A stretch of DNA of 64,000 nucleotides from a virus (lineage: Duplodnaviria > Heunggongvirae > Uroviricota > Caudoviricetes). The DNA is taken from IMG/VR virus record IMGVR_UViG_2897352509_000007; one strand, 5' to 3'. Made by a program: the position numbers. Each line of letters begins with the position of its first letter. The stretch's first letter is position 1. This document shows positions 36,901-39,900 of the stretch, one piece after another.

Positions 36901-39900
36901 CAACGACGAACGCATTCTGTCTGGCGTCACCGCCACTGGCACGCATCTGCCTTCACGGGGATTTGCAACGATTTGGCCGCCGCCTCAGCCTGTATGTGAA
37001 CACGGCAGCGGAAGCCATCCGGGCGCTGTCGTTACAGGTGCCGGGATTCCGCCGTCAGATGAACGAAGGCTGGTACCAGATACGTATTGCCGGTGATGAC
37101 ACGGCACCGGAGGCGGTGTACGCCCGTCTTCACGAACCTCTGGGTGAGGGGGCGGTCATCCATATTGTGCCGCGACTGGCCGGGGCCGGAAAGGGCGGAC
37201 TGCAGATTGTGCTGGGGGCGGCAGCCATCGTGGGCTCTTTCTTCACGGCCGGGGCATCAATGGCGTTATGGGGTTCAGCCCTGGCAGCCGGTGGTTTTTC
37301 TGCCACCACGATGCTGTTTTCACTGGGGGCCAGCATGATACTGGGCGGTGTGGCCCAGATGCTGGCACCGAAGGCAAAAACACCGGATTACCGCGCAACG
37401 GATAACGGTAAACAGAACACGTATTTTTCGTCACTGGATAACATGATTGCCCAGGGGAACCCGATGCCGGTGCCTTATGGTGAAATGCTGGTTGGTTCAC
37501 GACGGATATCCCAGGACATCAGCACCCGTGATGAGGGCGGAGACGGGAAAGTGGTGGTTATCGGGCGGGGATGAAAATAAAAAAATCCCGCAGAGTTAGC
37601 GGAGCTGCGGGAGAGAACGATGAAGATTAACGTTATGGAGTTATTTTTCAGGCATCAAAAAAGTAATGCAGCGTCATTATTGCGGCTACAGGCAATTGCC
37701 GGAAATGTGAAGAGTTTCAGAAATTTTATTCCGTCATGACACAGGCACCCTCCGGGGTGCCTGTTGTTTTCTGGCATAAACAGATTCAGACATCAGACAG
37801 GAGAGGGGGACAGAGTGGGTAAAGGGGGCGGCAAGGGGCACACGCCGGTAGAGGCAAAGGACAATCTTAAGTCCACGCAGATGATGAGCGTGATTGACGC
37901 CATTGGTGAAGGGCCGATTGAAGGTCCGGTGAAGGGGCTGCAGAGTATTCTGGTGAACAAAACCCCGCTGACGGACACGGACGGTAATCCCGTGATACAC
38001 GGTGTGACTGCGGTCTGGCGTGCCGGGGAGCAGGAGCAGACACCACCGGAAGGCTTTGAGTCCTCCGGAGCTGAAACCGCACTGGGCGTGGAAGTGACGA
38101 AGGCAAAGCCGGTGACGCGCACCATTACGTCCGCGAACATTGACCGCCTGCGGGTCACCTTCGGGGTGCAGTCACTGTTGGAGACCACCTCAAAGGGCGA
38201 CCGTAATCACTCTTCTGTCCGACTGCTGATTCAGTTGCAGCGTAACGGTAACTGGGTGACGGAAAAGGATGTCACCATTAACGGCAAGACCACCTCGCAG
38301 TTCCTGGCGTCGGTGATTCTGGATAATCTGCCGCCCCGGCCCTTTAACATCCGGATGGTCAGGGAGACGGCGGACAGCACCACGGACCAGCTGCAGAACA
38401 GAACGCTGTGGTCGTCATACACCGAAATCATCGATGTGAAACAGTGCTACCCGAACACGGCCATTGTGGGGCTGCAGGTGGATGCGGAGCAGTTTGGCGG
38501 TCAGCAGATGACGGTGAACTACCATATCCGCGGTCGCATCATCCAGGTGCCGTCAAACTATGACCCGGAAAAACGCACGTACAGCGGCATCTGGGACGGC
38601 AGCCTGAAACCGGCATACAGCAACAACCCTGCCTGGTGCCTGTGGGACATGCTGACCCACCCGCGCTACGGAATGGGAAAACGCCTGGGGGCGGCGGATG
38701 TGGACAAGTGGGCGCTGTATGCCATTGTGACACTGCCGGAGACCGGTGCCGCCACGGTGAACCTGATTAACGGCAGCGGTAAGCCGGTGAGTGTGGACAT
38801 CACCGCACACCCCGCGCCGGACCGGATACAGGTCAGTACCCTGCCTGATGGTGTGGAGACATACGGGGTGTGGGGACTCTCCCTGCCGTCACTGCGCCGT
38901 CGCCTGTTCCGCTGTGTCTCCGTCCGGGAAAACACGGACGGCACCTTTGCCATCACGGCGGTGCAGCACGTACCGGAAAAAGAAGCCATCGTGGATAACG
39001 GTGCCCGCTTTGAGCCGCAGTCAGGTTCCCTGAACAGCGTCATCCCACCGGCAGTACAGCACCTGACGGTGGAGGTGAGTGCAGCTGACGGCCAGTATCT
39101 GGCGCAGGCTAAATGGGACACGCCGCGGGTGGTGAAGGGCGTGCGCTTCAGTCTGCGCCTGACCAGTGGTAAGGGAACGGATGCCAGACTGGTGACCACC
39201 GCCATCACCGCAGACACGGAGCACCGTTTCAGCGGCCTGCCGCTCGGGGAATACACCCTGACGGTGCGGGCGATAAACAGCTATGGCCAGCAGGGTGAAC
39301 CTGCCACCACCACCTTCCGGATTGCCGCACCGGCAGCACCGTCGCGGATTGAGCTGACGCCGGGCTATTTTCAGATAACCGCCACGCCGCATCTTGCCGT
39401 TTATGACCCGACGGTACAGTTTGAGTTCTGGTTCTCGGAAAAGCGGATTGCGGATATCAGGCAGGTTGAAACCGCAGCCCGCTATCTTGGCTCGGCGCTG
39501 TACTGGATAGCTGCCAGTATCAATATCAAACCGGGCCATGATTATTATTTTTATATCCGCAGTGTGAATACTGTTGGCAAATCGGCATTCGTGGAGGCTG
39601 TCGGTCGGGCGAGCGATGATGCGGAAGGTTACCTGGATTTTTTCAAAGGAGAAATCGGGAAAACACATCTGGCCCAGGAGCTGTGGACGCAGATTGATAA
39701 CGGTCAGCTTGCGCCGGACCTGGCTGAAATCAGGACGTCCATTACGAATGTCAGCAATGAAATCACGCAGACCGTCAATAAAAAACTGGAAAATCAGAGT
39801 GCGGCAATCCAGCAGATACAGAAAGTTCAGGTTGATACAAATAATAACCTGAACAGCATGTGGGCCGTGAAACTGCAGCAGATGCAGGACGGACGCCTTT

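Follow-up and report, generated by a model that had tools for sequence, protein, structure and literature searches.

Which genetic element occupies the 240 bp that separate the tail genes I and J of this Caudoviricetes phage? In the window (the whole 64-kb stretch of phage DNA analysed here), the gene I ORF (Pfam Lambda_tail_I) ends with a TGA stop at 37572-37574, and J, which carries five Pfam tip-attachment-protein-J domains, starts with the GTG at 37815, matching the VT1-Sakai annotation. The J ribosome-binding site (GGAGAGGGGG) and GTG start codon together span 37800..37817 on the plus strand. The initial annotation had noticed the intervening stretch (37575..37814), which is indeed present (I end 37574, J start 37815), and had offered two readings of it, a small moron gene or a structured RNA inside the tail operon. 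The second proved right, with the RNA taking the form of a moron-like, independently transcribed small RNA (sRNA) gene (PasB/EcOnc22). Our analysis indicates that the spacer very probably holds a gene for a prophage-borne, Hfq-dependent, trans-acting sRNA, called PasB in EPEC and EcOnc22/23/24 in EHEC Sakai, so that the locus belongs to an already described, functionally uncharacterised prophage sRNA.

Distribution and conservation of the I-J spacer

The window spacer shares 100% identity with the I-J spacers in the Sakai prophages Sp15 (2902691-2902930 of NC_002695.2, between the J and I genes), Sp14 and Sp11, as well as with VT1-Sakai and four further phage records. Perfect matches came from 431 E. 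coli records; of 5426 complete genomes, 801 contained spacer matches, with a median of 3 and a maximum of 9 copies per genome. The spacer together with its terminator motif was found in 72 of 76 related IMG/VR loci. The initial annotation had considered that a spacer universal in related phages and devoid of conservation would speak against a functional insert; near-universality was what we found, and lack of conservation was not, with both structure and function being conserved. Terminator-like sites in the 1-kb region numbered 4 against 1.1 +/- 1.1 expected, and folding z-scores across the region ranged from -3.1 to -3.9. Rfam 15 covariance models gave no match to the spacer (E <= 1 in 36500-39000; gathering score across the whole window), which does not speak against an sRNA, since Rfam lacks a model for PasB.

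In its middle, between 37655 and 37700, the spacer varies strongly and is mosaic among prophages, as might be expected of a mere recombination joint or of decaying, functionless filler whose hairpins arose by chance. Against this, the terminator, the core of the seed, the -10 position, a palindromic box and a second hairpin, each described below, are kept across variants that differ elsewhere, and a discrete Hfq-dependent RNA has been documented both from the identical sequence and from a homologue (Northern, Hfq-CRAC, RIL-seq). We therefore regard a functionless spacer as extremely improbable.

A predicted sRNA gene antisense to the tail operon

Alignment to the E2348/69 PasB, a -10 element and folding place the PasB-family sRNA gene (EcOnc22) at 37579..37669 on the minus strand. 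Comparison with the 83-nt E2348/69 RNA sets the 3' end at 37579 and the 5' end at 37654, and the -10 element predicts a 5' end at ~37669. The RNA would be roughly 76-91 nt long, a range bounded by two deduced 5' ends, with published sizes of 83 and ~85 nt. Its predicted fold (MFE -20.3 kcal/mol, z = -3.9) has an 8-bp terminator stem and leaves the seed unpaired.

The Rho-independent terminator of the sRNA lies at 37579..37611 on the minus strand. Its stem pairs CCCGCAG (37587-37593) with CTGCGGG (37605-37611); on the plus strand AAATAAAAAAA precedes this hairpin, and on the minus strand the stem is followed by an A and then by U7 (37585-37579). The initial annotation had correctly called this first hairpin (37587-37611) a minus-strand terminator, and it corresponds to the PasB terminator with its U7. 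A terminator scan flagged it on the minus strand only, and the motif CCCGCAG-N-CTGCGGGAYTTTTT occurs once in the 64 kb versus zero times in 100 shuffles. Across 16 representative spacer variants the stem is 97% paired with zero compensatory changes, an absence of covariation that reflects how nearly invariant the stem is. Covariation in the spacer as a whole is too weak for statistical support, amounting to one compensatory pair in the second hairpin and none in the terminator. A search of genome contigs with the J N-terminus yielded just E. albertii and two contigs that looked like contaminants, and no divergent homologues for covariation.

Transcription would start from the sRNA's own promoter (-10 AATAAT, 37681-37676), run antisense to the late tail operon and stop at the intrinsic terminator (first hairpin plus U7) directly after the I stop codon. 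Such a unit would be a moron in the Hendrix sense, an autonomous promoter-gene-terminator cassette between two phage genes, whose product is an RNA. In lysogens, the tail genes are silent and the sRNA is expressed and Hfq-bound, as published work on the identical Sakai sequence and on the E2348/69 homologue shows.

Correspondence with PasB and EcOnc22/23/24

PasB, short for pathogenicity-associated sRNA B, has been documented by Northern, RNA-seq and RIL-seq in EPEC E2348/69, where it lies in prophage PP6 on the minus strand at 1466343-1466261 (83 nt; Table S6, Pearl Mizrahi 2021, PMC8550237). The Northern probe given in the same table, AATCCCGCAGTGATCGCGGAGCT, matches the window at 19 of 23 positions, and the four mismatches all fall in the hairpin loop. 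In that strain pasB reached a baseMean of 482-1082, compared with values of 4.8 and 15 in the neighbouring genes I and J, and fell 5- to 110-fold in delta-hfq (log2FC -6.8 and -2.4). The last base of gene I in E2348/69 is 1466255 and the first of J is 1466496, leaving a spacer likewise of 240 bp in which PasB occupies nt 6-88 past I on the antisense strand. The alignment with the window spans the whole spacer, with 72% identity in the sRNA (71/98 columns). The two loci share the slot, with the 3' end a few nucleotides past the I stop, the terminator stem CCCGCAG/CUGCGGG with U7, the core AAUCUUCAU, the aligned -10 position, the upstream box and the second hairpin; relative to E2348/69 PasB, the window allele is missing 7 nt near its 5' end.

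In EHEC Sakai, EcOnc22/23/24 were reported as Hfq-CRAC peaks on the plus strand (Table S2, Tree et al. 2014, PMC4104026). EcOnc22 gave a Northern signal of ~85 nt and was scored 'Destabilised' in delta-hfq in the same study, and all three are given as 'targets unknown' in Sy & Tree 2021 (PMC7873438). Their loci, the Sp15, Sp14 and Sp11 spacers, are identical in DNA to the window. The 2014 coordinates refer to an older Sakai assembly, so that the published positions lie ~132-149 nt off the current RefSeq record; we calibrated the shift to NC_002695.2 (+132 to +149) on AgvB, AsxR (with the paper's '282 bp 3' of stx2AB') and HnrS. At the StxS locus at 2.9 Mb, used as an offset check, a simple terminator scan found no hairpin at the expected place. 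Once shifted, the EcOnc22 peak runs from 37659/37642 to 37599/37582 of the window on the minus strand, which is the body of the PasB homologue. Unshifted, the same coordinates would point to the second hairpin (37731-37791, minus strand), a placement ruled out by the offset of AgvB, AsxR and HnrS. Given this calibration, the EHEC RNAs EcOnc22/23/24 and the EPEC RNA PasB appear to form one sRNA family. We found this link in none of the papers examined: the preprint of Zhu, Shabalina & Storz (2026) contains no EcOnc, and Table S6 of PMC8550237 lists no EHEC homologue of PasB.

Several known prophage sRNAs resemble PasB. The anti-sRNAs AgvB and AsxR, the convergent sRNA dyads of the PR' moron site and HnrS (EcOnc10-12) are likewise short, Hfq-binding, multicopy RNAs of the same lambdoid prophages; they combine a conserved 3' scaffold with a variable 5' pairing region and arrive with each prophage. 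They differ in sequence and in locus: AgvB and AsxR lie downstream of Q/PR', HnrS close to the lysis genes. AgvB and AsxR act as sponges for other sRNAs; PasB, by contrast, was recovered in RIL-seq mostly with mRNAs. AgvB and AsxR were ruled out as the identity of the spacer, both being at the PR' moron site, and HnrS, considered on account of 'up to nine copies', was rejected as lying near the lysis genes in Sp12 with a different terminator. Rfam also detects an AgvB-family/STnc100 dyad elsewhere in the window, at 16823-17092.

Promoter and upstream palindromic box

By sequence reading, the predicted -10 hexamer of the sRNA promoter lies at 37676..37681 on the minus strand. It reads AATAAT in the window, and other variants have TATAAT, TATCAT or GATAAA where they align with it. 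The -35 of the window allele is poor, in contrast to the E2348-type promoter, which has a strong one (TTCACA-16-TATAAT).

Further upstream, at 37706..37721, we found a CRP-like palindromic box, TGTGA-N6-TCAGA, a candidate regulator site. It agrees with the CRP consensus TGTGA-N6-TCACA at 9 of 10 positions, and its left half, AAATGTGA, at 8 of 8. Its half-sites are invariant and its centre variable among the 16 variants, and its spacing to the -10 is fixed at 24 nt. Matches of this kind number 6 in the 64 kb, against 2.26 expected. CRP sites are centred at -41.5 in class II promoters and at -61.5 or further upstream in class I promoters; the centre of the box falls at about -44.5 from the predicted start and -59.5 from the annotated 5' end, neither of which is canonical. 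PasB levels in overnight static LB exceed those in DMEM, a difference also compatible with sigma-S or FNR control. A role of the box as a site for CRP or another regulator of the sRNA promoter is hypothetical.

The seed region and the 39-codon ORF

The single-stranded seed region of the sRNA, AACUCCAUAACGUUAAUCUUCAUCGUUCUCUCCC, lies at 37609..37640 on the minus strand. In the alignment of the 16 representative variants its core, AAUCUUC, is invariant and its flanks differ by allele; in the predicted fold the core is mostly unpaired. The reverse complement of the seed is GGAGAG-N4-ATGAAGATT, which is the apparent SD and start codon of the 39-codon ORF described in the initial annotation. This ORF does exist at 37620..37739 on the plus strand (39 aa, starting with ATG, with GGAGAG 4 nt upstream), and the question it raises is whether it encodes a small moron protein that is made along with the tail operon or as part of it. 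An SD-like motif followed by 39 open codons, in a slot between two late genes that is a typical moron position, is what such a gene would look like. Its homologues tell otherwise. Among 38 distinct spacer variants the ATG is changed to ACG or ACA in 11, indels of 4, 5, 6, 9 and 13 nt shift the frame, and the ORF measures 7-43 aa with unrelated C-termini, apart from one variant in which a 103-aa frame runs into J. A Pfam search of the ORF gave no match. The ORF runs antisense to both the sRNA and the sRNA promoter, and its SD-ATG appearance is fully accounted for as the complement of a seed presumably selected to pair with ribosome-binding sites. A 40-aa ORF on the minus strand (37655-37777) also lacks an ATG in most variants. 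We accordingly judge the 39-codon ORF non-coding, and a translated moron protein very unlikely.

Candidate targets in trans

The CU-rich single-stranded stretch AAUCUUCAU(CGUUCUCUCCC) just 5' of the terminator would pair with mRNA translation-initiation regions, covering the SD, the start codon or both, and pairing of this kind would repress host and prophage mRNAs. It would also explain why the opposite DNA strand resembles an SD, an ATG and an ORF. In EPEC RIL-seq, chimeras with PasB on the 3' side involved E2348C_2648, the napF 5'UTR, map and yhhX, and further hflX, fabR, bfpB, tolC and others. Unrestricted RNAduplex runs of PasB against its targets returned meaningless full-length duplexes and were replaced by mapping exact-complement k-mers of PasB with shuffled controls. 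By this measure the top six RIL-seq partners contain 19 perfect complements of at least 7 nt, versus 7.3 +/- 3.1 in shuffles, and the matches cluster at PasB nt 36-56. Two are perfect over 11 nt, one at the GTG start of napF and the other at the SD of yijD, and at a third site both the SD and the AUG of the gene following E2348C_2648 are covered. In the papers examined we found no reporter or mutational validation of any PasB target.

The seed segment that gives the 11-nt napF and yijD matches is allelic, reading UUCACAUUG in E2348/69 and AUAACGUUA in the window. Targets listed for EPEC may hence not apply to the window allele, and the two alleles probably have differing target sets, to judge from the sequence of this segment.

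The hairpin upstream of J

The second hairpin reported in the initial annotation (37741-37764) is also present, with a 10-bp stem; including its T-tract, the element covers 37741..37772 on the plus strand. We characterised it by terminator scan, variant alignment, folding and comparison with lambda. Its GC-rich stem encloses a 4-nt loop, TCCG, and is followed by TTGTTTTC, just 5' of the J ribosome-binding site. Across variants the T-tract is retained and pairing within the stem is 98%; one pair shows a compensatory change from C:G to U:A (UA 10, CG 5, UG 1). The scan flagged it as a plus-strand terminator, and it can be described as an intrinsic-terminator-like element on that strand, placed by its position outside the sRNA. 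Q-modified polymerase would presumably read through it in lytic growth.

Comparison with lambda corrects one premise of the initial annotation, that J follows I directly there: the lambda genes are separated by a 60-bp spacer (I end 15444, J start 15505). Like the window, lambda has a GC-rich hairpin and T-run directly 5' of the J ribosome-binding site, AACCGCC-tgcg-GGCGGTT-TTTGTCATTT compared with CAGGCACCC-tccg-GGGTGCCTG-TTGTTTTC in the window. Lambdoid phages, lambda included, keep a stem-loop of this type immediately 5' of J. What the 60-bp lambda spacer lacks is the antisense sRNA module, the window having ~180 bp extra that comprise the terminator, the sRNA body, the promoter and the upstream box.

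Could the second hairpin terminate an RNA of its own? A plus-strand RNA of ~85 nt ending there (~37688-37772), either of the 3'UTR type or independently transcribed, would combine an A/U-rich stretch with a terminator into an Hfq-binding module. The hairpin with UUGUUUUC makes a good plus-strand intrinsic terminator, the sequence before its stem is A/U-rich as in Hfq modules, conservation within the spacer peaks in the 40 nt 5' of it, exceeding that of either flank, and the compensatory C:G to U:A pair lies in its stem. However, no Hfq-CRAC peaks are listed on the tail-gene strand at the corresponding Sakai coordinates, the EPEC RIL-seq tables have no IGR entry for such an RNA, and we found no convincing plus-strand promoter. 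The conserved block can alternatively be read as the regulator site of the minus-strand promoter, with its fixed 24-nt spacing, and the equivalent lambda hairpin sits in a 60-bp spacer too short to accommodate an sRNA. On these grounds we consider a second RNA from the plus strand decidedly improbable.

Function in cis or in trans

The antisense arrangement raises the further question of whether the sRNA acts mainly in cis, on the late mRNA between I and J, with trans targets being secondary. Duplex formation could then lead to RNase III cleavage or to a block of J, and late mRNA would titrate the sRNA on induction. The sRNA is always antisense in the late operon and at the same junction (72 of 76 loci, in EPEC and EHEC alike), by its very placement it is fully complementary to the late transcript, and the module is bracketed by the second hairpin and the sRNA terminator. 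In the lysogen, however, the late operon is essentially silent (the baseMean values of 4.8 and 15 above), while the sRNA is abundant and has dozens of trans partners on Hfq. No I-J chimeras were found in the EPEC RIL-seq tables examined, and lambda assembles tails without such a module. We consider a main function in cis unlikely.

The two modes could also be joined in a two-way switch within the late operon, with a catabolite-responsive PasB in the lysogen that is silenced or sponged on induction; we hold this fairly improbable. In the lysogen, the promoter with the TGTGA-N6-TCAGA box would drive PasB, which, through allele-specific seeds, would act on the ribosome-binding sites of host and prophage mRNAs and so repress them. 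On induction, the Q-antiterminated late transcript, fully complementary to PasB, would shut off the PasB promoter through collision and at the same time remove PasB itself by sponging or destroying it. If such a switch were real, the PasB regulon would be released and the late mRNA would be cut between I and J.

Implications

A trans-acting, Hfq-dependent sRNA, the reading that we prefer, bears on how such loci are annotated and on what they may do in their hosts. Selection of the seed for pairing with ribosome-binding sites would make the mirror strand mimic an SD and an ATG and so produce false small-ORF calls, and the locus shows why intergenic 'inserts' in prophage structural operons need to be read on both strands. 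Since PasB alleles vary in the seed segment that matches the best EPEC targets, multicopy EHEC genomes may hold functionally distinct PasB variants.

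An antisense sRNA gene between tail genes I and J

The tail assembly gene I (plus strand, Pfam Lambda_tail_I) ends with a TGA at 37572-37574, and the tip attachment gene J (plus strand, five J-specific Pfam domains) starts with a GTG at 37815 and is followed by Lom and a tail-fibre gene (ORFs and Pfam). These boundaries confirm the 240-bp spacer at 37575-37814 described in the initial annotation, which had assumed that J follows I directly in lambda; the lambda spacer is in fact 60 bp. The region contains four terminator-like sites versus 1.1 expected, with fold z-scores of -3.1 to -3.9. 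A terminator scan called hairpin 1 (CCCGCAG at 37587-37593 pairing with CTGCGGG at 37605-37611) on the minus strand only, where the A-run preceding it on the plus strand becomes a U7 tract following it, in line with its earlier reading as a minus-strand terminator. Hairpin 2 spans 37741-37764 with a perfect 10-bp stem, has TTGTTTTC after it and was called on the plus strand.

No Rfam family matched the I-J spacer. Five prophage sRNAs of EPEC E2348/69 were discovered by RIL-seq (Pearl Mizrahi et al. 2021, PMC8550237), including PasB, an 83-nt RNA from the minus strand of NC_011601.1 (1466343 to 1466261) in prophage PP6, placed between E2348C_1436 and 1437 in the opposite orientation to both (PMC8550237 Table S6). 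In E2348/69, 240 bp likewise separate the end of the tail assembly gene (1466255) from the start of gpJ (1466496), and PasB lies antisense to both genes at nt 6-88 past the I stop. The window and E2348/69 spacers can be aligned end to end, which places the minus-strand PasB ends at 37654 and 37579, with identity at 71 of 98 columns of the sRNA. The PasB Northern probe, AATCCCGCAGTGATCGCGGAGCT (PMC8550237 Table S6), corresponds to plus-strand positions 37584-37606, AATCCCGCAGAGTTAGCGGAGCT, with mismatches confined to the hairpin loop. Given the spacer alignment and the probe match, hairpin 1 with its U7 tract is, on sequence grounds, the PasB terminator. The element is the already known PasB/EcOnc22 sRNA gene, a moron that encodes no protein and runs antisense to the tail operon. 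The earlier proposal of a structured RNA in that operon thus stands as an sRNA gene, but on the opposite strand.

The EHEC counterpart

Hfq-CRAC in EHEC Sakai gave three homologous peaks, EcOnc22 (prophage Sp15, 2902714-2902774, plus strand), EcOnc23 (Sp14) and EcOnc24 (Sp11), of ~85 nt on Northern blots and "Destabilised" in Δhfq (Tree et al. 2014, PMC4104026 Table S2); a later review gives their targets as unknown (PMC7873438). Their unshifted coordinates fall 22-24 nt within the I-J spacers of NC_002695.2, antisense to the tail genes. Taken literally, they would put the EcOnc22 peak on hairpin 2, a placement we rejected because Table S2 uses an older assembly version. We calibrated the assembly offset on three sRNAs with independently fixed positions in NC_002695.2: AgvB1 (Rfam match 1941920-1941981; published peak 1941783-1941835), AsxR ("282 bp 3' of stx2AB", with stx2B ending at 1268347; published peak 1268494-1268542) and HnrS/EcOnc10 (promoter and terminator at ~2234371-2234436; published peak 2234239-2234287). 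All three require a shift of ~+132 to +149 from Table S2 to NC_002695.2, and the shift is constant from 2.17 to 2.90 Mb because the EcOnc22-24 peaks share one offset to J. Using the EcOnc coordinates unshifted puts an sRNA out of place by more than its whole length.

With this calibration, EcOnc22 corresponds to minus-strand window positions 37659/37642 to 37599/37582 and covers the body of the PasB homologue; its ~85-nt Hfq-dependent RNA agrees with the 83-nt PasB. We did not find this identity stated: PMC8550237 Table S6 gives no EHEC homologue for PasB, and EcOnc is absent from Zhu et al. 2026.

Distribution of the spacer and fate of its reading frame

Of 5426 complete E. coli genomes, 801 had Megablast matches to the 240-bp spacer, at a median of 3 and a maximum of 9 copies per genome, and 431 records reached ≥99% identity; nearly all copies were chromosomal and without an annotated feature. 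O157 Sakai (NC_002695.2) carries identical spacers between I and J in Sp15, Sp14 and Sp11. In the phage collection, the spacer was 100% identical in VT1-Sakai, CP-1639, Stx2a_WGPS6 and Stx1_14040, and ~140 phages, mostly Stx-converting, carried it at 60-90% identity. A J-anchored scan of IMG/VR covered 80 loci, with 38 distinct upstream sequences including those of the window and E2348/69; among the 76 loci having enough flank, the hairpin-1 motif was found in 72 and hairpin 2 plus its T-tract in 55. Scanning one genome per species returned the spacer only in E. albertii and two contaminant-looking contigs. Phages of this Escherichia group thus normally carry the spacer, which is no private insert.

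The 39-codon frame noted initially (37620-37739) is present, with GGAGAG 4 nt 5' of its ATG. A small moron protein had been offered as its product, a reading that we reject since 11 of the 38 distinct spacers have ACG or ACA in place of the ATG, 4-13-nt indels shift the frame after codon 10, and Pfam matched neither this ORF nor a 40-aa minus-strand ORF. Across spacers the ORF ranges from 7 to 43 aa with unrelated tails, and in one variant it reaches 103 aa, its frame running on into J. The minus-strand RNA directly 5' of the terminator reads AAUCUUCAUCGUUCUCUCCC, and its reverse complement, GGGAGAGAACGAUGAAGAUU, is what had been taken for a Shine-Dalgarno (SD) sequence and ATG; the ORF reflects the sRNA seed on the other strand.

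A recurrent stem-loop before J

Hairpin 2 was conserved separately on the sense strand. In 16 variants its stem was 98% paired and the T-tract retained; one pair switches from C:G to U:A (UA in 10, CG in 5, UG in 1), and wobble occurred in one sequence. In the 60-bp spacer of lambda (NC_001416; positions 1445-1504 of the compared locus), AACCGCC-tgcg-GGCGGTT-TTTGTCATTT occupies the matching position just ahead of the J ribosome-binding site, and this GC-rich hairpin plus T-run is by position the lambda counterpart of hairpin 2; the extra DNA relative to lambda is the sRNA module. In a subgroup with 332-336-nt spacers, hairpin 2 is swapped for a strong hairpin, AACCCCGGTATC...GATACCGGGGTT, with T-rich flanks. 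Thus, a stem-loop plus T-run before J is a recurrent sense-strand feature independent of the sRNA, and it seems general among lambdoid phages. Hairpin 2 may terminate unmodified polymerase, stabilise the mRNA 5' of it or form the end of a sense-strand RNA; neither an Hfq peak nor a RIL-seq entry is reported for the hairpin-2 strand. The loci with 332-336-nt spacers (L028, positions 1330-1500; also L059, L061 and L078) keep an E2348-type PasB gene with the near-consensus promoter TTCACA-16-TATAAT, and their substitute hairpin has 11 bp and is accompanied by ~100 nt of other sequence.

Predicted promoter and upstream palindrome

The predicted -10 of the sRNA, AATAAT, lies at 37681-37676 on the minus strand. 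A -10-like hexamer occupies this aligned position in all variants, elsewhere as TATAAT, TATCAT or GATAAA, and the E2348-type promoter TTCACA-16-TATAAT scored 11/12 in a promoter scan. The predicted start is near 37669, giving a predicted primary RNA of ~91 nt. The 5' end published for PasB is 15 nt further downstream than the start that the conserved -10 predicts; the 83-nt PasB may be processed, or its 5' end may be approximate.

Upstream of the promoter is a palindrome, TGTGA-AGAGTT-TCAGA (37706-37721). In 16 variants both half-sites are invariant and the central bases variable, and the distance to the -10 is exactly 24 nt although the intervening sequence is unrelated. The palindrome fits the CRP consensus with a single mismatch in 10 positions, a match quality found six times in 64 kb versus 2.26 expected (~0.01 expected per 240 bp). 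Its centre, ~-44.5 from the predicted start, is not a canonical CRP position. Overnight static LB gave more pasB RNA than mid-log DMEM, a pattern equally consistent with control by CRP, sigma-S or FNR. We treat the palindrome as a putative regulator site.

Other RNA genes and J in the window

Two tRNA genes followed by STnc100 and an AgvB-family sRNA occupy 16481-17092. STnc100 (16823-17031, plus strand) and the convergent AgvB-family sRNA (17033-17092, minus strand; Rfam score 56.6 versus a threshold of 56) are the known sRNA dyad of the PR' moron site, which here probably carries a variant anti-sRNA. On the plus strand, 11702-11851 encodes a sok antitoxin RNA of the hok/sok type I toxin-antitoxin kind, and DicF sRNA lies near the window end (62778-62829, minus strand), possibly in a second prophage. 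The window J (37815-40670) has only 951 aa, against 1132 aa for the lambda protein and 1157-1159 aa for those of E2348/69 PP6 and Sakai Sp11. It retains every Pfam J domain, the C-terminal receptor-binding domain among them, so that an internal deletion in frame seems likely. The window phage is not Sakai Sp15 itself, whose J is split by mutation.

Partners and seed alleles

In E2348/69, pasB reached a baseMean of 482-1082 versus 4.8 and 15 for the adjoining, nearly silent I and J, and its level dropped strongly in Δhfq (PMC8550237). Its RIL-seq chimeras on Hfq, with PasB always the 3' partner, joined it to E2348C_2648 (71 chimeras), the napF 5'UTR (70), map (67), yhhX (57), the nlpD IGR (56), hflX (55), fabR (50) and ygeV, bfpB, raiA, espC, caiF, tolC, rplX, ftsZ and others. 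Comparing E2348/69 PasB with the fragments of its top six partners, we counted 19 perfect complements of at least 7 nt versus 7.3 ± 3.1 after shuffling, clustered at PasB nt 36-56, CUCCUUCACAUUGAUCUUCAU. PasB CUUCACAUUGA is complementary to UCAAUGUGAAG, across the napF GTG start; UCCUUCACAUU to AAUGUGAAGGA, 7-17 nt 5' of the yijD ATG and covering its SD (the "fabR" RIL-seq partner); and CUCCUUC plus CAUUGAU to the SD and AUG of the gene that follows E2348C_2648. We infer that PasB represses by covering translation-initiation regions, as would a canonical Hfq-dependent repressor that occludes them.

The core AAUCUUC is invariant across spacer variants and its flanks are allelic; a comparison of 27 distinct spacers of the same architecture showed at least six seed versions. 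The E2348/69 and window alleles (positions 2261-2358 of the compared E2348/69 locus and 37579-37669) have core and terminator in common and differ in adjacent seed bases: the window has AUAACGUUA where E2348/69 PasB has UUCACAUUG, and it retains AAUCUUCAU, which matches napF and hflX over 8 nt each. Given an invariant AAUCUUC within allelic flanks, different prophage copies may hit different targets.
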